Both the position numbers and the translations under genes were made by a program. Shown piece after piece: positions 2,804 through 41,360 of a stretch of DNA of 41,360 nucleotides. Position 1 is the first letter of the stretch. The number at the start of each line of letters is the position of its first letter. This DNA is from a virus (Duplodnaviria > Heunggongvirae > Uroviricota > Caudoviricetes): positions 1 through 41,360 of IMG/VR virus record IMGVR_UViG_2778261164_000004, one strand, 5' to 3'. The notes beneath the pieces were generated by a model that ran no database searches, was not told where the DNA came from, and saw only the letters and a list, made by a program, of their open reading frames with translations.

Positions 2804-3323
2804 GGTTAACCTCCTGCTGCGGTGCTGCTGGCATTTCACTCCAGTGCGTAACTGAGTGCGGATCCGGATATTCGGTGCCATCATCCCAGCGATTGCCATT
2901 CCACATTGCAGACCACATCTCACCGTCTTCATACATGACAATTACCGGAATTAACTTATCCGGCATTCGATCACTACAGCTTATCCAACCATCCGTAGTT
3001 ACCGGAGAGTTGCCATTTACATCGAAGTTTGGCTCTGCGTCCTGAACCAGGAGGATGTAACCATTCTTGGCAGTATCAAGTTCTAACGCCTCGGTGACGG
3101 TGCCGAAATAGCGATTACCTAAATCCGCATCACAAGTGCTTACATCAATGGAAACCTCCATCCCTTCGATTAATTCTGGCAAGTTGTAAGTTTGGCTTAC
3201 AGGCTCGGCTTCCAGCGATGCCAGTGCAATCCGTGCCAGTTCCATTTGTTCGCCACGAGTAAGTCCGTTATCAAGCGGATTTTTAATGAATAATTCGATA
3301 CGTTCTTTAGTGATAGTGCTCAT
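2796..3323 (-). CDS. Phage protein with DUF551-like C-terminal region (175 aa)
   Basis: AAGGAG RBS before ATG at 3323 (internal to the longer track ORF); Trp/Pro-rich C-terminus typical of DUF551 phage proteins (recalled). Confidence 0.5.
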   Translation of the reverse strand: MSTITKERIELFIKNPLDNGLTRGEQMELARIALASLEAEPVSQTYNLPELIEGMEVSIDVSTCDADLGNRYFGTVTEALELDTAKNGYILLVQDAEPNFDVNGNSPVTTDGWISCSDRMPDKLIPVIVMYEDGEMWSAMWNGNRWDDGTEYPDPHSVTHWSEMPAAPQQEVNRG

Positions 3324-6966: not shown

Positions 6967-7029
6967 GGGTAACTCCTTATATTTGATTGCATAACGAAAA
7001 CGCCTCGAGTGAAGCGTTATTGGTATGCA

Positions 7030-7056
7030 TATAAAAAGGCCCTCACACTGGAGGGC
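7030..7056 (-). terminator. Rho-independent terminator inside the early-left (PL) operon
   Basis: Minus-strand RNA GCCCUC-CAGUGU-GAGGGC followed by CUUUUUAU; stems at 7039-7044 and 7051-7056. Confidence 0.5.
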
Positions 7057-7192
7057 AAAGAAGATTTCCAATAATCAGAACAAGTCGGCTCCTGTTTAGT
7101 TACGAGCGATATTGCTCCGTGTATTCACTCGTTGGAATGAATACACAGTGCAGTGTTTATTCTGTTGTTTGTGCCAAAAATAAAGGCCACCA

Positions 7193-7444
7193 TCAGGCAG
7201 CCTTGTTGTAAATGTTGCAGGTATCAAGTAAGTAATTAGATGGAGCGCCATAAATTATGAATTCATCGTTTGTCGGGTCCATCTCCATCTCTTGGCCTAT
7301 TGCCATTCTTGCGTCAGTGTCATCAGCGGCGAAGCATAAAACAGCCCACGCACCCATTGTTTTAAAAAGAACTGCAATTGGCTGTGGTTTTACTGAATTT
7401 GCGTTAGCGCGAAAATCACAAATCGCACTTTCATGAAATTCCAT
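7193..7444 (-). CDS. Hypothetical early protein (83 aa)
   Basis: AGGTG RBS upstream of ATG at 7444; no family recognised. Confidence 0.45.
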   Translation of the reverse strand: MEFHESAICDFRANANSVKPQPIAVLFKTMGAWAVLCFAADDTDARMAIGQEMEMDPTNDEFIIYGAPSNYLLDTCNIYNKAA

Positions 7445-7506
7445 ATATCACCTAAAATAAGTGGTTTGCTGCCAAAACAATGAACCATCCGGAAATTCCA
7501 GATAGT

Positions 7507-7731
7507 TCATAATTCACTCTTCAATACTTCCAACTTACTAATCGCCGATAGATATCCGCGCTGATAGGGCATCATCATTCCTTCGAGCTTGCCACTTCTT
7601 AACTCCTCCCTGAGCAATTGTATTGCTTGATCAATAACCTCTGCCTTAGCGTCCTTTATGGCTTGCTTGCGGGGCTTTGCTTTCTGCTTTGGCAGATTTC
7701 TCAAGCATGATGGAATGTATGTCTGATTCAT
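7507..7731 (-). CDS. Hypothetical early protein (74 aa) immediately after the N-like gene
   Basis: GAGG RBS; ATG at 7731 follows the N-like stop by 3 nt. Confidence 0.45.
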   Translation of the reverse strand: MNQTYIPSCLRNLPKQKAKPRKQAIKDAKAEVIDQAIQLLREELRSGKLEGMMMPYQRGYLSAISKLEVLKSEL

Positions 7732-7734
7732 CAC

Positions 7735-8007
7735 TTACCTCGCCGTCAGTTGTTTTGATTTCCGGTAGCCTGCCGCGTAAATGGCTACGTTTGGCAGGCA
7801 AATACTTCCACTGCATTCATCTGCCTTCTTGCAGCGAAGGCTTCCGAGTGATGCTGCTTTATCTGCTCTGACGCAACCAGAGAGCTTTAGCGCAATCTTT
7901 CGCGCCAATCGCTGTTCTTGCATTGCCTGTTCACGTTGAGCCTGTCTGCGTGCTCTGCGGCGATTTCTGGCGTTATCGTCAGCCAGATATGTAATGACTA
8001 CTGTCAT
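7735..8007 (-). CDS. N-like transcription antiterminator candidate (90 aa) with arginine-rich motif
   Basis: First gene downstream of PL and nutL; contains NARNRRRARRQAQREQA, resembling the arginine-rich RNA-binding motif of lambdoid N proteins; GGAGG RBS 5 nt upstream of ATG. Confidence 0.5.
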   Translation of the reverse strand: MTVVITYLADDNARNRRRARRQAQREQAMQEQRLARKIALKLSGCVRADKAASLGSLRCKKADECSGSICLPNVAIYAAGYRKSKQLTAR

Positions 8008-8365
8008 GTTGACCTCCGATGATTGACTTTGGCGGTGACGCGCCGGGTGCTTATCTTCCGGTTGCCGTCGTGCAGCTGCACTTCACGTCACCCCAAAGCC
8101 AACTACTCTTTGACTCACACTCTCGCAGTGAGCGCGCTCATGCCCTTGAGTCTCTGTCGCTTATTAGCCGCTGATAACCGGTGCGCGTCTGGCATTCGCG
8201 CTGCCTTTCCGGAGCATGTTCCCTTATTTACCCTCACATCGGTCTGCTAAACCTGCTCGCCATTACGCGACTCGGGGCAGCATCATTACTGCTGCATTGC
8301 CTTTCGGCTGCGGTCTAACCGCGTTAGTGCACCATTACGGCACCTCCTGTTTGGTTAAACTCAGT

Positions 8366-8406
8366 TCCCGCATTTCGGCGGGACAATCCCATCAATGTTA
8401 AAGAGC
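8366..8406 (-). promoter_or_regulatory. nutL site (boxA GCUCUUUAACA + boxB hairpin)
   Basis: Minus-strand boxA at 8396-8406 and hairpin UCCCGC-CGAAAU-GCGGGA at 8366-8383; the same boxB sequence recurs on the plus strand after cro (nutR). Confidence 0.6.
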
Positions 8407-8452
8407 CTGCCAATCTGTTCCGTTTGGCTACCAGCGTCCTGCTGATGGCTAA

Positions 8453-8495
8453 AGAATACTGTAGGTATTTTATTGTGTAAATACCCAAGGTATTT
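8453..8495 (-). promoter_or_regulatory. OL operators and PL promoter
   Basis: Two palindromic operators AATAC-N5-GTATT (8455-8469) and AAATAC-N5-GTATTT (8479-8495) of the same family as the OR sites; minus-strand -35 TTTACA and -10 TATTCT with 17-bp spacer overlap them. Confidence 0.55.
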
Positions 8496-8625
8496 ATTTT
8501 TGGTGAAATAATGATAAGCAAATGAATACAAAGGATATTTATTTTTTCGTCGTCTGCTTGTTCAGTGCTTTTTATGCGGGATATGTGAAGTTGATCCCGA
8601 TAGCTATTGCTGCCGGGATTATGGG

Positions 8626-8993
8626 TTAGTCAGCGAAGGTTAAGACGAGAATTACCTTAATGATGTCTGCTACAACAGACACGGCCATAGATAAACCAAA
8701 GACGATCCAAGCCATAGAGATGTCTTCACTACCATCGTATAGAGTTCCGTAATCACTGGTGTAAGGCGTAAATGTCGCGCCTTGATACAATAGGTATAAG
8801 CTTGATCCATAGAGGATAAATGCAGATATCCCTTGTATTGCTATGATCACCAGAATCATGAAACGAGCTGATCTATGCGCCCAAGCCTGGCTTATTTTTT
8901 CTGATAGAGATTTCGCAAAAAAGCATGCGCTAAGCCGTAAATTGTTGAGATTGCCAACATCCCCAAAAAGCTTGCTATAGCGGTTCCAACCAT
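8626..8993 (-). CDS. Repressor-linked three-TM membrane protein; reading frame interrupted at a homopolymer tract (frameshift, pseudogene or slippage site)
   Basis: AAGGGGG RBS and ATG at 8993 open a hydrophobic 33-codon frame (MVGTAIASFLGMLAISTIYGLAHAF...) ending at TAA 8892-8894; the two-TM C-terminal part continues in another frame to 8626; frames rejoin if a coding-strand T6 run (plus 8917-8922) were T7. Confidence 0.45.
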
Positions 8994-9011
8994 AAGCGCC
9001 CCCTTGCGTGA

Positions 9012-9728
9012 TCAAACCAGTCTGAGTTTTGTCTCAATTGCAACGCCTATAATCTTGCAGTTTCCATTGATTGGCACGAGAGGCCATGCAGGATTAAGTC
9101 CCTTGAGGTATTTATTTCCGCCGTCGATTATCAGCTTCTTGAATGTTGCTTCGTTAGAGTCAGAAAGTTTTGCTATGACCAAGCTGCCGTTGATCGCCTC
9201 CCTTCCGGTATCGAAAAGAACGAATGTTCCCTCTGGAATGCTTAACCCAACCGGTGCCGTCATTGAATCACCTTCCACTTTAAGCCAGAACGCATTACCT
9301 TGAATATGCGCGTCAGACTCAAGCCAAACATCTATGTCTTTAATGGTGTATGGTTCGCATGCTTCACACCACGAGCCAGCCTGGATACTGCTTAACACCG
9401 GATACCTCTTTCCTGCTCTGTATTCTCCTGCATACCTTACGTTGGCATCGCTCTTAAGGCTTTCTGCCTGTTCTGCAACCTTGGCAGCAATTGACTGGCT
9501 AAAATCAGCAATTGAGACTTGCAACAGTCGTGCAAAACCAGATGCAACCTCAACGTTTAGCGCGTTTCTGCCATTAAGATAATGCCCTACCGCTCCTTGG
9601 GTGATACCCAGTTCATCAGCGATTGAGTATTGGGTTATTCCCAATTCTTTCTTTTTTGACTCATACAAAGCCTTAAGCCGCTTAGCGTCTTCTAGCTGTT
9701 CTGTCGTCAGTGATTTTTTATTTTCCAT
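9012..9728 (-). CDS. cI: Lambda CI-like prophage repressor (HTH + S24 LexA-like autopeptidase domain)
   Basis: N-terminus ...LTTEQLEDAKRLKALYESKKKELGITQ closely parallels lambda CI; C-terminal domain has the GDSM serine and AKL lysine motifs of S24 peptidases; divergent from cro. Confidence 0.9.
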   Translation of the reverse strand: MENKKSLTTEQLEDAKRLKALYESKKKELGITQYSIADELGITQGAVGHYLNGRNALNVEVASGFARLLQVSIADFSQSIAAKVAEQAESLKSDANVRYAGEYRAGKRYPVLSSIQAGSWCEACEPYTIKDIDVWLESDAHIQGNAFWLKVEGDSMTAPVGLSIPEGTFVLFDTGREAINGSLVIAKLSDSNEATFKKLIIDGGNKYLKGLNPAWPLVPINGNCKIIGVAIETKLRLV

Positions 9729-9763
9729 AGCTTAATTCTAATAGCTAAGGTACTTAAACTAAA

Positions 9764-9805
9764 AATACCCTGAGTATTGATTGCTTTGAATACCTGTAGT
9801 ATTCT
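9764..9805. promoter_or_regulatory. OR operators with PR promoter
   Basis: Palindromes AATAC-CCTGA-GTATT (9764-9778) and GAATAC-CTGTA-GTATTC (9788-9804); PR -35 TTGATT (9777-9782), 17-bp spacer, -10 TATTCT (9800-9805) overlapping the second operator. Confidence 0.6.
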
Positions 9806-9834
9806 TTGTTCATGGTTAATAACGGAGAGTGCAT

Positions 9835-10029
9835 ATGATTCGAATGACACTTGCCGATTACGCCAAAATCCATGGACAGGCTAAAGCAGCCAGTGACTTT
9901 GGTGTAATCCAGTGCGCTATCAGCAAGGCCATTCTGGCAGGCCGTAACATCATGGTTACGGTAAAGCCTGATGGCAGTGTGATTGGAGAGGAAGTTCGTC
10001 CTTTCCCAAGCAACAAGAAAAACAAATAG
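9835..10029 (+). CDS. cro: Cro repressor (lambda Cro-like, 64 aa)
   Basis: [62 protein letters not shown] aligns along its length with recalled lambda Cro; GGAG RBS; ATG at 9835 preferred over the upstream GTG. Confidence 0.85.
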
Positions 10030-23615: not shown

Positions 23616-24500
23616 ATGGAAAACGAACTGATCATCGACGGTCAGGTTATTGACCTGTCTGAAACACAGGAAAATGCAGAAGAAACCATCATCCAAACAG
23701 AGTCACAGCCTGAGAATGAAAGCCAGGATGACAACGGTAAAGAGGTGGCAACTGAGCCTGAAAAAACCGAAGAGACACCAGAAGATTACGCCTTGCGTAT
23801 TGGTGATGAAGAAATTCAGCTTAACGCTGACGATGATGATCACATTGACGGGCAACCTGCACCGCAATGGGTGAAAGATCTTCGCAAAGGCTTCAAAGAA
23901 ACACAGAAAGAAAACCGTGAGTTGCGCCGCCAGCTTGAGGAAGCATTAGCCAAGCCAGCGGAACATCAGCAACCACAACCAGACGCTATTCCACCAAAAC
24001 CGACTCTAGAGTCGTGTGATTATGACGAACAGGCGTTTGAACAGGCATTGACTGATTGGCATGAGAAAAAAGGCCGTGTCGAACAGCAGCAGCAACAAAA
24101 ACTACGTCAGCAACAGGAATACCAGCAGCGTTTCCAGCAAAGGGTAGAAGCGCATAAACAACGGGCAGCCAAACTTCCTGTGAAAGATTATCAGGAAATG
24201 GAAGCCATTGTTCTTAGTGAGCTACCACCAATTCAGCAGGAAATCATCATTCACTGTGCAGACGAAGGCTCTGAACTACTCGCCTATGGCTTAGGTAAGA
24301 GCCAGCAATTACGCCAGCGTGTAGCCGCTGAGACAGATCCAATTCGCGCAGCATTCCTCTTGGGGCAGATTAGCAAACAGGTAAGCCTTGCTCCAAAACC
24401 AAAGAAAGCCATCAAGCCAGAGCCGGAAGTACGTGGTGGCGGTGCTGATGCGAAACAAGACGAATTCAACAAATTATGCCCCGGCGCAAAAATCGAATAA
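23616..24500 (+). CDS. Scaffolding protein
   Basis: Acidic, highly helical, Gln/Glu-rich 294-aa protein between portal and coat. Confidence 0.7.
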   Translation: MENELIIDGQVIDLSETQENAEETIIQTESQPENESQDDNGKEVATEPEKTEETPEDYALRIGDEEIQLNADDDDHIDGQPAPQWVKDLRKGFKETQKENRELRRQLEEALAKPAEHQQPQPDAIPPKPTLESCDYDEQAFEQALTDWHEKKGRVEQQQQQKLRQQQEYQQRFQQRVEAHKQRAAKLPVKDYQEMEAIVLSELPPIQQEIIIHCADEGSELLAYGLGKSQQLRQRVAAETDPIRAAFLLGQISKQVSLAPKPKKAIKPEPEVRGGGADAKQDEFNKLCPGAKIE

Positions 24501-24511
24501 GGAAAAGATAA

Positions 24512-25783
24512 ATGCCTAACAATCTCGACAGTAACGTCAGTCAAATCGTTCTGAAAAAATTCCTTCCGGGTTTTATGTCAGATTTAGTTCTGGCGAAAAC
24601 CGTAGACCGTCAGTTGCTGGCAGGTGAAATCAACTCCAGCACTGGCGATAGCGTTAGCTTTAAACGTCCGCATCAATTCTCATCCCTCCGTACTCCCACT
24701 GGTGATATTTCAGGGCAAAATAAAAACAACCTGATCTCAGGTAAAGCTACGGGGAGTGTAGGTAACTACATCACTGTTGCTGTTGAATATCAGCAACTGG
24801 AGGAAGCGATCAAGCTTAACCAGCTGGAAGAAATTCTCGCGCCTGTTCGCCAGCGAATCGTTACCGACCTTGAAACAGAGCTTGCTCACTTCATGATGAA
24901 TAACGGTGCGTTGTCACTTGGTAGCCCCAATACTCCAATCACCAAATGGTCTGATGTTGCGCAGACGGCATCTTTCCTGAAAGACCTCGGCGTTAATGAA
25001 GGTGAAAACTATGCTGTAATGGATCCATGGTCTGCACAGCGACTTGCTGATGCGCAGACTGGTTTGCATGCTTCAGATCAATTGGTTCGTACTGCATGGG
25101 AGAACGCACAGATCCCAACCAATTTTGGCGGCATTCGCGCACTGATGTCTAATGGGCTTGCCTCTCGTACGCAGGGGGCATTTGGCGGAACACTGACAGT
25201 CAAAACACAGCCGACTGTTACCTATAACGCAGTTAAAGACTCATACCAGTTCACTGTAACATTGACCGGAGCGACAGCCAGCGTTACAGGTTTTCTGAAA
25301 GCTGGTGATCAGGTCAAATTCACCAATACCTACTGGCTGCAACAGCGGACCAAACAGGCGTTGTATAACGGAGCCACACCAATTAGCTTCACTGCAACGG
25401 TTACTGCTGATGCTAATTCAGACAGCAGTGGCGATGTGACGGTTACGCTTTCTGGTGTTCCGATTTATGACACTACAAACCCGCAGTACAACTCTGTAAG
25501 TCGTCAGGTAGAGGCAGGCGATGCCGTATCTGTAGTTGGCACTGCTAGCCAGACAATGAAGCCAAACCTGTTCTATAACAAGTTCTTCTGTGGACTTGGC
25601 TCTATCCCACTGCCGAAACTGCACAGTATTGATTCTGCTGTTGCAACATATGAAGGTTTCTCCATCCGCGTACATAAATACGCAGATGGCGATGCCAACG
25701 TGCAAAAAATGCGCTTCGACTTACTGCCTGCATATGTGTGCTTTAACCCTCACATGGGCGGTCAGTTCTTCGGTAATCCGTAA
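24512..25783 (+). CDS. Major capsid (coat) protein
   Basis: 423-aa ORF after scaffold and before a strong terminator; size and position match coat of P22-like phages. Confidence 0.7.
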   Translation: MPNNLDSNVSQIVLKKFLPGFMSDLVLAKTVDRQLLAGEINSSTGDSVSFKRPHQFSSLRTPTGDISGQNKNNLISGKATGSVGNYITVAVEYQQLEEAIKLNQLEEILAPVRQRIVTDLETELAHFMMNNGALSLGSPNTPITKWSDVAQTASFLKDLGVNEGENYAVMDPWSAQRLADAQTGLHASDQLVRTAWENAQIPTNFGGIRALMSNGLASRTQGAFGGTLTVKTQPTVTYNAVKDSYQFTVTLTGATASVTGFLKAGDQVKFTNTYWLQQRTKQALYNGATPISFTATVTADANSDSSGDVTVTLSGVPIYDTTNPQYNSVSRQVEAGDAVSVVGTASQTMKPNLFYNKFFCGLGSIPLPKLHSIDSAVATYEGFSIRVHKYADGDANVQKMRFDLLPAYVCFNPHMGGQFFGNP

Positions 25784-25787
25784 TAAC

Positions 25788-25812
25788 AAGGGGCTTACGC
25801 CCCTTTTATGTT
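25788..25812 (+). terminator. Rho-independent terminator after coat gene
   Basis: AAGGGGC-TTAC-GCCCCTT followed by TTATGTTTT. Confidence 0.65.
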
Positions 25813-25825
25813 TTAAGGAAACAAT

Positions 25826-26011
25826 ATGGATCGGATGAGTGTATTCCTTGCCGCAGATAACGAATCCGGGCATGTACAGGCCGTTATCACAGAAAAAGAC
25901 TTCCGTTTTTTCGAAAGGTTGGGCTTTGTTGCCTCAGTTGATGAATTGAAACCGACCAGTAAGCGAGGTCGTAAGGCGGCGGACAATGGCAACAGTACTG
26001 ACAAAGGGTGA
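25826..26011 (+). CDS. Small hypothetical protein (61 aa)
   Basis: AAGGAA RBS; overlaps start of the next gene; coding status uncertain. Confidence 0.35.
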   Translation: MDRMSVFLAADNESGHVQAVITEKDFRFFERLGFVASVDELKPTSKRGRKAADNGNSTDKG

Positions 26012-35903: not shown

Positions 35904-38060
35904 ATGACAGACATTACAGCCAATGTTGTGGTAAGCATGCCTTCGCAACTCTTCACTATGGCGCGTTCTTTTAAAGCCGTAGCTAATGGTAAAATTTATA
36001 TCGGAATAATTGACACTGACCCGGTAAATCCAGAAAACCAGATTCAGGTTTATATAGAGAACGAAGACGGTTCTCACGTTCCTGTTTCGCAACCAATCAT
36101 CATTAATGCTGCTGGATATCCGGTATATAACGGACAGATTGCCAAGTTTGTAACTGTGCAAGGTCATTCTATGTCTGTGTACGATGCATATGGATCACAG
36201 CAGTTCTATTTCCCTAATGTGCTGAAGTACGACCCTGATCAATTTGAGATTAGGCTTTCTAATCAAGACGGCGCTGGTCTTGTTGGGATTATGCCATATG
36301 GCACGGTACAGGATGCCATCAAATGGGTTGTCCCCGAGGTATTCCCCGGAAGTAATGCGTCAGAAAAATTACAGGCAGCTGTAAATTATGCGGTTGCAAA
36401 CAAAACGAGAGTTGTAGCATCAGGTGTGTACGATGTAACAGCCCCCGTCACCATCCCAGGAGACATCATTATCGATGCTTCTACTGGAGAATTTACCTTC
36501 AATGGCATTGATTATATTTTCCATCCGCTTGGCGCAAAATCAGTAGAGATTATCGGCGGTAAGTTCACCGCAAATGCATACCACACCCAGCGTCCTCAGG
36601 TAATTTTCAATGATTACCCTGATGGGCTGGAGAATTTACCAACGCGCGTGGTGATAAAAGATATGCAATGCTTTAACTGCGGTGTTGGCTACATCATGGT
36701 TAACTGTCAGGACCCAACCAGCGTACATATCTCAGTTGATAATAACTACTGCAAGACTGATGACAACACAGATCAGTATATCTCTGATGCAGGAATGTCA
36801 GGTGAACAGGGTGAGGTATATCCATATCTGATGATTCTTGGCAACACGACTGCATCCGTCGACATTGGAACTCCTCGCAAGTCAATGTTCCACATAACGA
36901 ATAACACCTTTGATGTTTTTATGCAGACCGGTCCGAATGCAGATATTATAAAAATCGGAGGATCGACGATAGGAGGCGCTTTCTCTGGAAATTTACTTAT
37001 GAACAGGAATGCTGAGTCTGCGTGTGAGATGGATACATTTACTGGGGGGCTTGAAATAAACATAACTTCCAACAGATTTGTCAATACAGCTAATAAAATG
37101 ATGTCATTGCAATTTGATGGCAGTACTAGAGTCGGTCTTGGTGGGCGTTCAGTTATTTCTAACAATATCTATCATTTTGAGGAAAACCCGCTTAACGATT
37201 TCGCTATATTCCTTAGAACTTCTCTTGTTAGTATTACAGGAAATGTTTTCTACTATAAAGGTGCTACAAATCCTTCAGAACAGAGGATATTTAATTTCAT
37301 CGCTTCACAGGCGTTAAACAACAATAACAACGGTTTTAATGGCACGTGGTGTGCCGGAATTAGTATCAACAGCAATACCATGCAAATGGTTCTTGATCCT
37401 GGTGTTAACAAAGACCTAAGACTCCAATGCATCAACACTACCGATATGTCAGGAGCAGTTATATCTGGCAACTTCATGGCCGGGGGTGTTGGAATGGTGC
37501 TTAATGCAAGACCAGAAAGAAACAGAAACGTATGGACAGGTAACTTCATTACGTCAGGGTTATTTACGGCAGAAGATATCTGGCGAATGAACTCAGCTTT
37601 TGTAGGTTCAGGTAACTATATCGGAAATGGTTATGATAATACTGTTAATGGCGTAGCAATGTTAAGCAAGTCTTTACCTGTGTTATCTGATGGCTCAAAG
37701 GTACGAATTACTCTTGATAAACAGATATTGACTGGTTCTACATCTGATCGCACTCTTTACCTTCTCCACATAAAAGTGACTGGAGGTGTAAAAAATAATT
37801 ATGCTACTTATATCATGTCTTCCGGTGCGCATGACGCAACGGACAGGGCAGATGCAACTGACCTTAAATCACCCATTGATCAGCGGTTAAATCCAGGAGA
37901 CACATCCATAGCAAACCTGCAAAGTTGCTTCAAAGCAGGGTACAACGGGAGTGGGTATATTGTGCTTGAGGCTCTTTCAACATACAGCGCTGCAAATAAT
38001 CCGCCAACAAAACTTGAATATGCAATAGTACCATTATCAACAAACTTCCCAACTCTGTAA
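35904..38060 (+). CDS. Tailspike protein (P22 gp9-type head-binding domain + divergent beta-helix receptor-binding domain)
   Basis: First about 120 aa (MTDITANVVVSMPSQLFTMARSFKAVANGKIYIGIIDTDPVNPENQIQVYIENEDGSHV...) match the P22 tailspike N-terminal domain; remaining about 600 aa are unlike P22 and have beta-helix-like repeats. Confidence 0.85.
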   Translation: MTDITANVVVSMPSQLFTMARSFKAVANGKIYIGIIDTDPVNPENQIQVYIENEDGSHVPVSQPIIINAAGYPVYNGQIAKFVTVQGHSMSVYDAYGSQQFYFPNVLKYDPDQFEIRLSNQDGAGLVGIMPYGTVQDAIKWVVPEVFPGSNASEKLQAAVNYAVANKTRVVASGVYDVTAPVTIPGDIIIDASTGEFTFNGIDYIFHPLGAKSVEIIGGKFTANAYHTQRPQVIFNDYPDGLENLPTRVVIKDMQCFNCGVGYIMVNCQDPTSVHISVDNNYCKTDDNTDQYISDAGMSGEQGEVYPYLMILGNTTASVDIGTPRKSMFHITNNTFDVFMQTGPNADIIKIGGSTIGGAFSGNLLMNRNAESACEMDTFTGGLEINITSNRFVNTANKMMSLQFDGSTRVGLGGRSVISNNIYHFEENPLNDFAIFLRTSLVSITGNVFYYKGATNPSEQRIFNFIASQALNNNNNGFNGTWCAGISINSNTMQMVLDPGVNKDLRLQCINTTDMSGAVISGNFMAGGVGMVLNARPERNRNVWTGNFITSGLFTAEDIWRMNSAFVGSGNYIGNGYDNTVNGVAMLSKSLPVLSDGSKVRITLDKQILTGSTSDRTLYLLHIKVTGGVKNNYATYIMSSGAHDATDRADATDLKSPIDQRLNPGDTSIANLQSCFKAGYNGSGYIVLEALSTYSAANNPPTKLEYAIVPLSTNFPTL

Positions 38061-38062
38061 AT

Positions 38063-38099
38063 TTGTGCGCACTATGAAAAAGTTAAATAGTGCGCACAA
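38063..38099. terminator. 13-bp perfect inverted repeat between convergent tailspike and acyltransferase genes (bidirectional terminator candidate)
   Basis: TTGTGCGCACTAT (38063-38075) and ATAGTGCGCACAA (38087-38099), 11-nt loop, AT-rich flanks. Confidence 0.55.
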
Positions 38100-38108
38100 T
38101 TATTTATA

Positions 38109-40064
38109 TTATATATCGATAATTATATTTCCAAACCCTTCAATTGCCTTTCTTGCTCCATATCTTGATAGATGATACTCATCAGAATACATAACGTCAC
38201 CTTTGTCAGATACTAGGTTACATCTCCCATTCCTACACATGAAATCATAAGGGTTTATAAACTTTATACTTCCGTTATCTGATAGCCATTTGTTTAAATA
38301 ATTATTGCTATCTAACCTATCACCGCTTTCTGTGCTGAAAATACTATCAATGCATTTCTTTTCAACATATGAAGGTCGGCTCACACAAGAAAGACCGCCG
38401 TCAGAGCCTATTGCTGCCGGGTGGTTTCCAATAACAATTACTTTCTGATTTGTGTACTCTTGAATATTGTTAATAACGGAAGCATTGAATTTCATATAAT
38501 CATGGTCTCCGTTGAATTTATACACATTACCATCTTTATCAGATAGCATCTCCATGTACCTAAGCCATGATTGTGCATAAACAAGTGGTATCTTATTATA
38601 TTTAGAGTAATCTATCGCTTTTGTTCCTATCTTCACACCATATACAGAAACCTTCCCTTTTTCTGTAACGTAAACGCTATTTGATAGATATGCCCCATCA
38701 GCGAAGAATGCTGCTGCTGATAGATTTCTCTTTGCAAGAAATTCACTCATGGCTAATGAATACTGTCTTGCATAACTGTCACCCATGAAAACAAATGATG
38801 GCTTTTTGGTTTTATCTCCAAGAACTACCATTTCACCTTGCTTAACCCCAAAGCCTCCGAATAAATATTCTTTAAATCCAGGTTTGAGCATTTCCATGTT
38901 TTCTTTATAATTTTGTATTCTAAATGCAAATCCGTTGTCTTTTATTGAAGATGAATACGAAATCATAACCAATATAGTTAATGATAAAAGCAATACTGAT
39001 TTGTAGCAAAACTCATTTATTTTTATCTTTCTGAATTTATTTTCTATTGCGTTGTACATTAAGAATCCAACAGCCAGCGAAGATAAAATCAATGATGCTT
39101 TCTCGATATCATTTAACTCTCTATATATCCAGTATTTGTAAAACACAATAATAGGCCAGTGAATTAGATAAACTGAATACGATATCAGGCCTATCGTAAC
39201 GCTGACCCTGTTATTCACAGCGAAGCCAGCGTATTTTGCATCATGTGAAAGAATGCAAAGCATGGCACCCAATACGGGAATCATGGCATGCAAACCAGGG
39301 AACTGAGTTGATGATGAGTAAAGCAACGCAGATGATACTATCATCGCAAGTCCCGCAGCCATCATAGACTCCTTCATTAGTTCAGATGGTTTTATCCATC
39401 GAGAAATGAAGAATGCGAGTCCGCCGAAAGACAACTCAAAAACCCTGAACGGCATCCAGTAGTATGCTTCAGTTTGCATGTTTATAGTTGCCCACTGAGA
39501 GGATGCCAGAGAAGCAATACTAATAATAACCAGAACCCATGGCACAAGGCTCTTTTTTACTAAATATACTGCTCCGATAATCAGAGGCCATACAAGATAG
39601 AACTGCTGTTCTACACCAAGAGACCATGTGTGCAACAATGGATTTATTTCTGATGATGTATCGAAATAACCAACGCTTTGTGCAAAAAATATATTTGATG
39701 CTGAATACAACGCATATATTGCTGATTTAGATACACTAACAAAATCAGAAGGTGAGTACAGAATAAAGCACCCAGCAAAAACGGCGATCAGCGTTGCTAT
39801 AAGAGCAGGGTACAGTCTTGCTATCCTGGCGAACATGAAATTAATGTAACTGAAAGTTCCATTCTCAGTTTGATTGAAAATTATTCCAGTTATCAGATAA
39901 CCAGAAATAACAAAAAATACATCAACGCCAACAAACCCTCCGGGAACACTGCTGAACCCTACATGAAATATAAGAACTAAAATGACGGCAACAGCACGGA
40001 GTCCATCAACTCCTGGCTGGTAATTTTTAGACAATGTTTTGTCAGTCTTCAAAAGAAAGCTCAT
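38109..40064 (-). CDS. O-antigen acyltransferase, acyltransferase-3 membrane domain fused to SGNH domain (OafA/Oac-like, 651 aa)
   Basis: N-terminal AT3 motifs (DGLRAVAVILVLIFHV, FFVISGYLIT), about 10 TM segments, C-terminal GDS(Y) SGNH motif; markedly AT-rich compared with neighbours; sits between tailspike and integrase. Confidence 0.8.
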   Translation of the reverse strand: MSFLLKTDKTLSKNYQPGVDGLRAVAVILVLIFHVGFSSVPGGFVGVDVFFVISGYLITGIIFNQTENGTFSYINFMFARIARLYPALIATLIAVFAGCFILYSPSDFVSVSKSAIYALYSASNIFFAQSVGYFDTSSEINPLLHTWSLGVEQQFYLVWPLIIGAVYLVKKSLVPWVLVIISIASLASSQWATINMQTEAYYWMPFRVFELSFGGLAFFISRWIKPSELMKESMMAAGLAMIVSSALLYSSSTQFPGLHAMIPVLGAMLCILSHDAKYAGFAVNNRVSVTIGLISYSVYLIHWPIIVFYKYWIYRELNDIEKASLILSSLAVGFLMYNAIENKFRKIKINEFCYKSVLLLSLTILVMISYSSSIKDNGFAFRIQNYKENMEMLKPGFKEYLFGGFGVKQGEMVVLGDKTKKPSFVFMGDSYARQYSLAMSEFLAKRNLSAAAFFADGAYLSNSVYVTEKGKVSVYGVKIGTKAIDYSKYNKIPLVYAQSWLRYMEMLSDKDGNVYKFNGDHDYMKFNASVINNIQEYTNQKVIVIGNHPAAIGSDGGLSCVSRPSYVEKKCIDSIFSTESGDRLDSNNYLNKWLSDNGSIKFINPYDFMCRNGRCNLVSDKGDVMYSDEYHLSRYGARKAIEGFGNIIIDI

Positions 40065-40202
40065 TATTCATCCGTATTCATTCTTTTTTGCTGTGCTGAT
40101 ATTAGCACTGACATCGCCACCGATCGACTTTTGAAGTGGTAACTAGGCGAAAACGGGATACACAAAGCTTTGCATTGGTTTGCAAGGCTTTGTGCTGTTT
40201 TT

Positions 40203-41360
40203 CTACGACACCCTCTCATCGAGATAATCCGCCCACCACTGCATCATCTCCCTGCGCTTATCGAGATACTGAGCATGGTTGTAAATCCCACGCACAGATC
40301 CGCCGTTGGCATGTGCCAGTTGCACTTCAATAGCGTCAGCAGGCCATTCGTGCTCGTTCATAATCGTGCTGAATTCATGCCTGAATCCGTGACCGCTTTC
40401 CAGACCCTCATAGCCAATTTGTTTGATCACAAGCAATACCGCGTTCTCGCAGATTGGCTTCTTCTTATCGTTGCGACCGGCAAAAACAAACTCTGATACT
40501 GGTTTGGTGATTGAGCTTAGTGTAGTGAGAAGTTCAACCACCTGGTCTGACATCGGGACAACATGAATTTTGCGTCCCTTCATCACACTGGCGTCGATGG
40601 TGATAATCCTGTTTTCAAAATCGACGTTCTTCCATAGCATGGAACGAAGCTCTTTCGTTCTTAGGGCTGTGTAGCGTAAAACTTTGGTCGCAATGAGCGA
40701 TACGATACTTCCTGAAAATGTTGCCAGTGCTTTGTTGAATGCCGGGATCTGGTCTGCTGGAAGAAACGGGAAGTTCTTCTTGCGGTATCCTTTCATGGCG
40801 TCTGCAAGGTCAGGTGCCGGGTTATATTTAGCCCTTCCGGTGACAATAGCGTAACGGAAAACCTCGCCGCATCTTCTGCGGGCTTTGTTGGCTCGCTCCA
40901 TTGCACCGCGATCTTCAAATCTGCGGATTACTTCCAGCAGTTGCATCGGCTCAATATCCTGAATCTCAAGACCGCCGATGATGGGTAAAATGTCGTCATC
41001 AAACATTTTGGCAAGTTCAGTTGCATAGCCTACTGACCAGACTTGCTTCTTGTGCTCGTACCATTCCTTGTAAATCGCACTAAATGAATTGTTGTTAGAC
41101 GAAGCCTTTTTCGCCTTTACCGGATCGATGCCAACCGAGATGTCTTTCCTCGCGGTCCATGCTTTATCCCTTGCTTCCTGCAAAGTCATAAGCGGATATT
41201 TTCCGACGGTCAGGATTTTCTCCTTACCGTCAATCTTGTAGCGAAGCTGCCATACCTTTTTCCCGGATACAGGGACATAAAGGTACAGGCCATTACCATC
41301 GAGAAGGCGGTATGGTTTTTCTTTCGGCTTAGCTGCTTCAATCTGCTTAACGGTGAGCAT
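40203..41360 (-). CDS. intS: Tyrosine integrase, IntS type (385 aa), start codon at window end
   Basis: MLTVKQIEAAKPKEKPYRLLDGNGLYLYVPVSGKKVWQLRYKIDGKEK... and C-terminal catalytic motifs (HGFRH, Y near the C-terminus) match recalled E. coli IntS of CPS-53/KplE1. Confidence 0.9.
   Translation of the reverse strand: MLTVKQIEAAKPKEKPYRLLDGNGLYLYVPVSGKKVWQLRYKIDGKEKILTVGKYPLMTLQEARDKAWTARKDISVGIDPVKAKKASSNNNSFSAIYKEWYEHKKQVWSVGYATELAKMFDDDILPIIGGLEIQDIEPMQLLEVIRRFEDRGAMERANKARRRCGEVFRYAIVTGRAKYNPAPDLADAMKGYRKKNFPFLPADQIPAFNKALATFSGSIVSLIATKVLRYTALRTKELRSMLWKNVDFENRIITIDASVMKGRKIHVVPMSDQVVELLTTLSSITKPVSEFVFAGRNDKKKPICENAVLLVIKQIGYEGLESGHGFRHEFSTIMNEHEWPADAIEVQLAHANGGSVRGIYNHAQYLDKRREMMQWWADYLDERVS

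Follow-up and report, generated by a model that had tools for sequence, protein, structure and literature searches.

A structured RNA module inserted between nutL and the N gene of a lambdoid prophage

Why do 358 nucleotides (nt) separate nutL from the start of the N gene in this prophage, when the same interval measures 107 nt in HK620 and 110 nt in phage 21? The interval occupies positions 8008-8365 of a 41,360-nt stretch of viral DNA (IMG/VR virus record IMGVR_UViG_2778261164_000004, positions 1 to 41,360; hereafter the window), which is a P22/HK620-like lambdoid prophage with its early leftward genes on the minus strand. An earlier note, made from the sequence alone, described the interval as an unusually long, GC-rich and highly structured N leader, and this observation is confirmed. 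The GC content is 0.535-0.57 over 7900-8400 and 0.375-0.45 in the flanks on both sides. The inverted repeats that had been listed are present, with positions within 1 nt: the self-complementary GTGCAGCTGCAC (8070-8081), GGTGACG (8086-8092) pairing with CGTCACC (8034-8040), GAGCGCGCTC (8130-8139) and the minus-strand hairpins GCGGUUAGACCGC (8310-8322) and GCAGCA-GUAAUGA-UGCUGC (8277-8295). The interval is not, however, the single leader that it was taken for. It consists of an ordinary N leader of about 100 nt and an inserted structured RNA of about 250 nt.

Alignment shows the 251-nt insert to be present in the window, mEp213 and Stx2c phages and precisely missing from HK620, in which the flanks are near-identical. 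It begins five bases past boxB, starts with UGAGU and ends with GAGU, leaving no positional ambiguity relative to HK620. A covariance model built from 31 compact members recognises a structured RNA module of 245 nt here (Table 1) and finds exactly one copy per locus in 84 + 68 loci. No second copy (for instance after Q) is present in the window, where the core motif occurs once when up to three mismatches are allowed. In the phi80-type leader the module is a mosaic replacement instead of a clean insertion. We note that mEp213 (our locus L001, 391-2148) has two different N genes in tandem; ahead of the second, which is of HK620 type, stands a copy of the module with 99% identity. Homology of this copy with the window begins inside boxB, so its nutL may be only partial.

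Folding of the whole 358-nt stretch is weak (z = -1.9, with 4 of 100 shuffled sequences folding equally well), the strong folding being found in the N-proximal part. Because thermodynamics alone is weak for both the stretch and the insert, the decisive evidence for structure is comparative. The structure model was started with RNAalifold and continued with mutual information on 140 distinct sequences; pairs were counted over 83 distinct homologues on alignment A4, which was fitted to the model and therefore favours it. The model's 48 pairs fall into 14 helical segments when interrupted helices and the pseudoknot are each counted on their own. Paired cells amount to 97.2%, against 26-37% when the partners are slid by 1-3 columns, and 37 of the 48 pairs change on both sides. 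Compensatory cells number 442 against 105 ± 7 in column shuffles, none of 500 shuffles reaching the observed value. The slid controls, the independent mutual information and compensation read by hand in an unfitted MAFFT alignment all agree. Alignment with related prophages thus reveals compensatory changes and a structure conserved in homologous phages; with covariation across the homologues and no protein-coding signal, the proposal of a non-coding, structured RNA holds. A non-coding remnant, also suggested in the earlier note, is not compatible with a fold under such strong structural selection. We have very little doubt that the module family is a genuine structured RNA family.

The module comprises eleven helices, including a three-way junction, and a pseudoknot. 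Px, which encloses two arms of the junction, and the pseudoknot both emerged from mutual information. The pseudoknot is 98% paired (AU 76, UA 11, CG 10, GC 2), and a single pair of H3 is found as AU 37, CG 21 and UA 16. In H6a and H6b together, nine of nine pairs covary and 99% are paired. The pyrimidine following the CCC of Px covaries with the purine preceding GGG in the linker between H5 and H6, which identifies this GGG as the partner. The almost invariant block near the 3′ end of the module probably forms H9. Its loop GGC is 100% complementary to the GCC of the H6b loop, which would permit a kissing interaction; both sides are invariant, so covariation is uninformative. Three other pairings were considered and rejected. 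In the long-range CCC:GGG pairing proposed by RNAalifold (the GGG of CUCAAGGG), an A at the R position is uncompensated. A closing helix CCGC:GCGYG replacing H1 is compatible with the data but uncompensated, whereas H1 is compensated. For a switch pairing of GAGUCGC with downstream GCGAC..CUC, the H4 variants covary locally and not with the distal segment.

Table 1. Positions of the features of the nutL-N region and of the RNA module in the window.
Feature	Position	Strand	Basis or remark
cI	9728..9012	-	first in minus-strand order
pL promoter-like site, TTTACA-17-TATTCT	8453..8481	-	promoter scan; matches annotated pL of HK620
nutL	8366..8406	-	read from sequence; aligns with annotated nutL of HK620
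nutL boxA, GCTCTTTAACA	8396-8406	-	sequence read
nutL boxB hairpin, UCCCGC-CGAAAU-GCGGGA	8366-8383	-	sequence read
251-nt insert, TGAGTTTAACC...GAGTGTGAGT	8113..8363	-	alignment with HK620, mEp213 and Stx2c phage
Structured RNA module, 245 nt	8108..8353	-	covariance model, 244 bits, E = 9e-94
Shine-Dalgarno motif of mini-ORF, AGGAGG	8343..8348	-	7 nt upstream of AUG
Mini-ORF, ATG GTG CAC TAA (M-V-H-stop)	8324..8335	-	stop 1 nt before H1
H1 hairpin, GCGG-UUAGA-CCGC	8310..8322	-	92% paired; compensatory variants including GCGA/UCGU and ACGG/CCGU
H2 hairpin, GCC-GAAA-GGC	8299..8308	-	all pairs change on both sides; GNRA-type loop in most members
H3 hairpin, GCAGCA-GUAAUGA-UGCUGC, 6 bp, conserved loop GUNNUGA	8277..8295	-	6/6 pairs covary
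Three-way junction (Px, H4, H5)	8231..8276	-	mutual information, covariation
Px, CCC with GGG, encloses H4 and H5	8274-8276 with 8231-8233	-	pair covaries, CG 92 / UA 37
H4	8267-8270 with 8257-8260	-	inside Px
H5	8251-8253 with 8241-8243	-	inside Px
Pseudoknot, 3 bp, H5-loop AGC (8246-8248) with GCU (8213-8215), directly before H6	8213..8248	-	
H6a, CCGG (8209-8212) with CCGG (8178-8181), encloses H6b	8178..8212	-	
H6b, GCGCG with CGCGC, conserved loop AAnGCCAGA	8197-8201 with 8183-8187	-	
H7, short variable hairpin	8159..8168	-	expanded in 'extended' family members
Almost invariant 18-nt block CUCAAGGGCAUGAGCGYG, plus H8	8114..8150	-	highest conservation
H9 hairpin (candidate), CUCA with UGAG, loop AGGGCA	8147-8150 with 8137-8140	-	within the invariant block
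H8, CUCAC with GUGAG	8128-8132 with 8114-8118	-	covaries
N-leader long helix, ~20 bp, GGUGACG...CGUCACC, apical GUGCAGCUGCAC	8022..8103	-	folding and comparison; ends ~5 nt before the N Shine-Dalgarno motif
N Shine-Dalgarno motif, GGAGG	8013-8017	-	sequence read
N gene, HK620-type, 90 amino acids	8007..7735	-	comparison with HK620

The remaining part of the interval, 8008-8112, is recognisable by comparison as the normal leader of N genes of the 21/HK620 type. The long helix in it (8022-8103) has a folding free energy of -43.5 kcal/mol; for the N-proximal 113 nt z is -4.35, and none of 200 shuffles is as stable. The long helix is conserved in phage 21 and HK620 with three compensatory pairs; a long stable helix between nutL and the N Shine-Dalgarno (SD) motif is therefore kept among phages with this type of N. 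As in the lambda-type leaders of lambda, 21 and HK620, a helix of about 20 bp lies between nutL and the ribosome binding site of N. The likeness covers only about 100 of the 358 nt, the 251-nt insert having no counterpart in lambda, 21, HK620 or phi80. In lambda, RNase III cleaves at the corresponding helix and translation of N is thereby modulated; the N protein also acts through nutL to repress translation of its own message. A role in N control is likely for the N-proximal helix. The earlier note had proposed a processing site or translational control of N, an idea that fits the helix of the 100 nt shared with HK620 and phage 21 and not the insert. In a Stx2c phage the basal stem of this helix is kept around a different apical insert (z = -4.9). 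The extra apical insertion, seen in Stx2_5044 (L003, ~1480-1570), is about 87 nt long and has hairpins of its own. The N leader thus seems to attract RNA insertions.

About 140 distinct homologues of the module were found in Enterobacterales phages and prophages. BLAST located it in 17 of 50,697 phage records, whose hosts are E. coli, Klebsiella, Hafnia and Providencia. Among 5426 complete E. coli genomes 128 carry it (~2%), always in the chromosome, almost always unannotated and never annotated as RNA. The linear plasmid-prophage phiKO2 has a full copy (130 bits). Pattern searches were anchored on 24 nt of the conserved 3′ core, and at least 120 IMG/VR contigs match this pattern. In GTDB contigs, with one genome per species, it matched 83 stretches, of which about 60 are full copies. 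These all belong to Enterobacterales (~60 species, in Kluyvera, Citrobacter, Enterobacter, Klebsiella, Xenorhabdus, Morganella, Providencia, Pectobacterium, Erwinia, Edwardsiella, Rahnella and other genera), except for two assemblies that are likely contaminated or mis-binned. About 12 GTDB pattern matches in other phyla are without the module; some nine chance matches are estimated for the 596 billion bases. Full copies were observed in two Firmicutes-labelled contigs, one of Vagococcus sp. WN89Y (L179) and one of a Bacillales metagenome-assembled genome (L206), the latter copy being preceded by an HK620-type nutL. Contamination or mis-binning explains them most simply.

In annotated loci the module is sense-oriented within long antiterminated operons, and scans of the window and of 733R5 detected no promoter of its own on the module strand. 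It is found in three kinds of place. The first, that of the window copy, follows nut sites of several specificities, including the phi80-type nutL, and precedes N or the first pL gene. The second lies directly after a tR′-like terminator downstream of Q, before tRNAs or a holin; tR′ immediately precedes the module in 37 copies. The third is after the last lysis gene and before terminase. What follows the module varies accordingly: N, a tRNA, a holin, terminase, hypothetical genes or an intrinsic terminator. Such a terminator follows in 28 of 139 copies, mostly 2-11 nt past H8, the last helix, and also in phiKO2; no terminator was found on the minus strand of the window between 7600 and 8700. 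When tRNAs within 600 nt are counted, one lies 3-156 nt downstream in 7 of 140 copies and never upstream. The varied downstream features make the module a portable RNA and not a control element specific to N. For 46 of the 140 copies the nearest neighbour in sequence belongs to a different context class, the classes being crude regular-expression calls. After the mEp213 copy, the window copy is most similar to one of spanin-end type (86%) and one of terminator type (85%), with other nut-type copies ranking behind them. As similar copies thus occur in differing places and the contexts are interleaved, the module moves as a cassette. The late leader of an E. coli OW1E2 prophage (L013) has the look of an island of RNA genes, its order being Q, tR′, module (2359-2609), tRNA-Thr (2613-2686, ~3 nt later), the small RNA (sRNA) STnc100 (Rfam; 2905-3097) and holin.

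At its 5′ edge the module carries a very short open reading frame (ORF). The earlier statement that no ORF in the interval has a ribosome binding site does not hold, since AGGAGG stands 7 nt upstream of the M-V-H mini-ORF. Among 139 distinct members, 118 have an ATG ORF of 1-8 codons (three or fewer codons in 107) and 110 have an SD-like motif. Across the family the stop codon precedes H1 by 0-10 nt. The peptide is not conserved (M, MK, MKQ, MKH, MVH, MHQ and others). Variants reduced to AUG-stop often retain an older stop downstream, so that the start site and the place of termination are kept and not the product. In about 12 variants the upstream gene, encoding an Rz or Rz1 spanin or a DNA methylase, terminates at this very stop. 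With either a mini-ORF or an upstream gene ending at the same place, the conserved feature would be a ribosome terminating at the 5′ edge of the fold. Comparison across the family therefore indicates that a ribosome is delivered to this edge. In the 'MVH' subgroup, which includes the window copy (8330-8342, minus strand), the spacer GUGCC can pair with codons 2-3 (GGUGC), giving a small hairpin with the AUG in its loop or right beside it; one variant has CACC...GGUG. This hairpin could tune initiation at the mini-ORF in that subgroup only.

A parallel to the mini-ORF is provided by the lambda bar minigenes, which consist of an SD motif and AUG AUA stop, use a specific rare tRNA and are not known to have a structured domain attached. 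Both have a strong SD motif and an ORF of a few codons on the pL transcript of a lambdoid phage, with no functional peptide; in the window AGGAGG-N7-ATG GTG CAC TAA (8324-8348) lies downstream of pL. A specific last sense codon, like the AUA of bar, is not a feature of the module, in which the mini-ORF codons are unconserved. They vary freely, some members having AUG-stop only, and what is conserved instead is the position of the stop relative to a fold of ~220 nt. Drop-off of peptidyl-tRNA and ribosome recycling on the same mRNA rise as minigenes are shortened from eight codons to two, and the shortest minigenes reportedly go through repeated rounds of translation while the mRNA stays on the 30S subunit (PMC2490762). 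The SD motif of the module may also resemble STAB-SD of Bacillus and the SP82 polypurine stabiliser, in mode of action only. In SD-type 5′ stabilisers a ribosome or 30S subunit held at an SD motif near the 5′ edge protects the downstream RNA, and no useful protein is made. By analogy the two may act alike, although these stabilisers are simple sequences of Gram-positive mRNAs, whereas the SD-AUG-stop of the module is integral to a conserved complex fold in enterobacterial phages.

We compared the module with known classes of RNA. The Rfam search that the earlier note had proposed was run: with the 4227 covariance models of Rfam 15, cmscan on window positions 7000-10000 at E <= 10 gave no match in 8008-8365. 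For six other members, at E <= 1, only tRNAs, STnc100 and two weak leader matches were returned, all outside the module. ARAGORN found no tRNA or tmRNA gene in window 7900-8500. Ribosomal RNA mimicry was considered, as the H3 loop GUAAUGAUG together with CCCGAG resembles helix 71 of 23S rRNA; blastn-short against rrnH returned only chance-level matches of 10-15 nt. The invariant CUCAAGGGCA (8141-8150, minus strand) is perfectly complementary to UGCCCUUGAG in helix 26 of E. coli 16S rRNA (837-846). This is one 10-mer match where ~1.3 are expected by chance, and the complementarity was set aside. A leader-peptide attenuator was rejected as well: the ORFs have 1-4 codons and no codon bias to one amino acid, and no terminator was found on the transcribed strand in 7600-8700. 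The put RNA of HK022 is about 70 nt long, forms two stem-loops, is not known to have a ribosome site and replaces N. Like the module, it is a structured nascent RNA placed early in lambdoid early operons. Unlike put, the module coexists with N or Q and also sits after tR′ or the lysis genes, and model R1 with filters off scored no more than 5.4 bits across HK022 24000-40751. A further comparison is with ROOL and GOLLD, large phage-associated non-coding RNAs of 500-800 nt. These RNAs, from other phyla, are carried by prophages, often beside tRNA genes, are expressed in lytic growth, are not known to have an SD motif or mini-ORF and are represented in Rfam. They share with the module their size, ornate architecture, support from covariation and association with phages. 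Their Rfam models do not match the module, however, and only the seven copies mentioned above have a tRNA nearby. ROOL and GOLLD are the subject of a cryo-electron microscopy study (10.1101/2024.12.08.627333). A description of the module RNA was not found in the literature, with the literal sequence included in the search; coverage was incomplete and an earlier description is possible. A 2025 review of phage sRNAs and a 2026 preprint on prophage Pas sRNAs do not describe it. As far as these tools can tell, the module is an undescribed class of phage RNA.

What might the module do? Our preferred reading, held tentatively, is that it is a self-contained non-coding RNA with a ribosome kept at its 5′ edge, expressed by read-through in lytic growth and not a regulator of N. 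Read-through from pL or pR′ would express it during lytic growth; in the window the pL-like site would be the source of a transcript carrying nutL, the module, the N leader and N. The mini-ORF, or in some phages the stop codon of the upstream gene, would place a terminating ribosome precisely at the fold's 5′ edge. Repeated translation of the minigene, with the mRNA staying on the 30S subunit, could then keep the ribosome resident there. Such a ribosome may shield the 5′ side of the module from upstream sequence, RNase E or Rho, or may tether the folded domain to the ribosome. Through its invariant loops this domain would act on a hypothetical host or phage partner; the elaborate core suggests that the partner is specific. 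Since N lies downstream, the window copy must let unmodified RNA polymerase through, consistent with the lack of a terminator there. Many copies are followed by terminators or tRNAs, which resemble the 3′ ends of an RNA gene, and the RNA may be a processed sRNA.

Several points tell against this reading. The folding energy of the insert alone is unremarkable (z = -1.16). H9 and the other invariant segments offer no variation that could covary and are partly fixed by the search pattern. Some 15% of members have no recognisable ATG mini-ORF, so ribosome loading may be non-essential, and the context classes are crude. For every member, expression, processing and ribosome occupancy are predictions. 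Finally, the sense orientation, the absence of a promoter and the location after antitermination signals would fit a cis-acting role at the operon level equally well.

Such a cis-acting element is the main rival, although we regard it as rather unlikely. The nascent fold and its ribosome would act on polymerase, Rho or RNases so as to ensure processivity, keep Rho from loading or make the long antiterminated transcript more stable, much as put, Rho-antagonising leaders and 5′ stabilisers do. A position inside pL or pR′ operons, usually directly after nutL or tR′, and a single copy per locus are what such an element should display. The sense strand is G/A-rich, C-poor (G 31%, C 23%) and tightly folded, which would make it a poor substrate for Rho, and with the stop codon abutting the fold no naked RNA is left. 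However, N or Q is already present and an extra antiterminator looks redundant, while in the late operons the module comes after tR′ and not before it. The terminators within a few nt of the module and the occasional tRNA look like the end of an RNA gene. The early and late regions of HK022, where put sites are expected, score below 6 bits, and eleven helices, a pseudoknot and an 18-nt invariant block far exceed known stabilisers in elaboration.

The boldest reading, in which the module founds a new class of large functional RNAs that operate on or with the ribosome, we consider unlikely. Here SD-AUG-stop would dock a 70S ribosome with the pseudoknotted domain at the mRNA entry side, or the domain would be a ribozyme or ligand sensor gated by the arrival of the ribosome. 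A docked 70S could make the module a ribosome-directed effector or decoy in lytic growth, for example against host defences linked to ribosomes or translation.

It is less probable still that the module is a sensor, either a riboswitch-like ligand binder or a monitor of translation in which the ribosome at the mini-ORF stop melts H1 and switches the fold, so that the RNA downstream meets a different fate. In its size, its pseudoknot, its junction of several helices and its invariant nucleotides in junction and loops, the module does resemble large riboswitch or ribozyme classes. A ribosome terminating 0-10 nt before H1 must unwind it, and the 3′ strand of H1, CCGC, could alternatively pair with downstream GCGYG. 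This alternative shows no compensatory change, though, and the mini-ORF is too short for sensing amino-acid supply. Rfam riboswitch models are unmatched, no consistent class of downstream gene or recognisable expression platform exists, and the window copy has neither a terminator nor a helix sequestering an SD motif. For a riboswitch in particular, the downstream features are heterogeneous and no platform of either the SD-sequestering or the terminator type is conserved.

The interpretation offered in the earlier note, that the leader controls translation or processing of N, is partly supported, by the N-proximal helix. For the insert, a function restricted to controlling N is unlikely, and we think it very improbable that the module serves RNase III-type cleavage, uncouples N translation from nutL-bound N or sequesters the N ribosome binding site. 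Its location between nutL and N, the very stable helix conserved among 21/HK620-type leaders and the RNase III site and autorepression known from lambda make the idea natural. That role, however, is already covered by the 100 nt shared with HK620, and both HK620 and phage 21 do without the 251-nt insert. Between the end of the insert and the N SD motif lie 100 nt, and no conserved pairing with this motif was found. In other phages the same module precedes tRNAs, holins, terminase genes or a terminator, and it is also found in late operons.

The clean indel relative to HK620, the close relatives in differing genomic contexts and the strongly conserved structure would all be accounted for by an element that is selfish or catalytic and persists through its own propagation (an intron with no ORF, a ribozyme that cleaves itself or an insertion resembling a miniature inverted-repeat transposable element). 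We nevertheless give it scarcely any weight. No group I, group II or small-ribozyme model matches, Intron_gpI included, and the boundaries fit neither group I, as the insert ends in U and not G, nor group II, as it does not start with GUGYG. There are no terminal inverted repeats and no target-site duplication in the empty site; each phage has one copy, none at random sites, and the phi80-type leader shows mosaic replacement. That the module encodes a small protein in sense or antisense, its structure being incidental, can be practically dismissed: antisense ORFs of 40-80 codons are common (median 52) and 'hypothetical protein' genes are annotated in phage RothC and a few E. coli records, but lengths modulo 3 are even (44/49/46), candidate ORF starts of the window lie in variable segments, Pfam gives no match, the long antisense ORFs are a consequence of a sense strand poor in T (17.8%), and compensation on both strands in eight helices is the prediction of selection on RNA and not on protein. 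By the same three tests (Pfam, length modulo 3, comparison of ORF starts), no conserved translated protein was found in the interval. The 'hypothetical protein' coding sequences that cover the module in Klebsiella phage RothC (L006, 2416-2752; antisense) and in some RefSeq E. coli records are probably mis-annotations arising from the T-poor sense strand.

Few genetic systems have been studied as thoroughly as the lambdoid phages of E. coli, yet about 2% of complete E. coli genomes carry the module with no annotation. Should it prove to be a functional RNA, it would be a new player in the early and late lytic programmes and a rare case of a ribosome binding site and a start-stop ORF integral to a non-coding RNA. 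Natural pairs with and without it (this prophage or mEp213 versus HK620) provide a tractable system. The module explains antisense 'hypothetical protein' calls and merits a family model. A context-independent fold that tolerates insertion into operon leaders could also serve synthetic biology.

Some features of the surroundings deserve mention. The order on the minus strand is cI, an hkaS-like ORF for a putative membrane protein, pL, nutL and the HK620-type N. The hkaS-like ORF (8626-9015, minus strand) lies between cI and pL, where HK620 has hkaS and where lambda and yong1 have rexAB. Hydrophobic stretches in it point to a membrane protein, and it has the character of a moron-type gene expressed with cI. 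On the strand opposite pL, between the operators and this gene, a hydrophobic ORF of 35 amino acids (MNTKDIYFFVVCLFSAFYAGYVKLIPIAIAAGIMG; 8522-8629, plus strand) could encode a small membrane protein or have arisen by chance. Within the 'nutL regulatory signal' of phi80, a block of 65 nt (…GAGAACGGGCAACACTGGCAGGGAG…) shows 95-100% conservation among phi80, many Stx2a phages and a Klebsiella phage; it was located in phi80 (L218, 796-860), in L010 (2400-2484) and in 105 phage records. Related GAACGGGCAACAC motifs precede the module in Xenorhabdus and Morganella prophages, and the block may be a conserved nut-type RNA in its own right.

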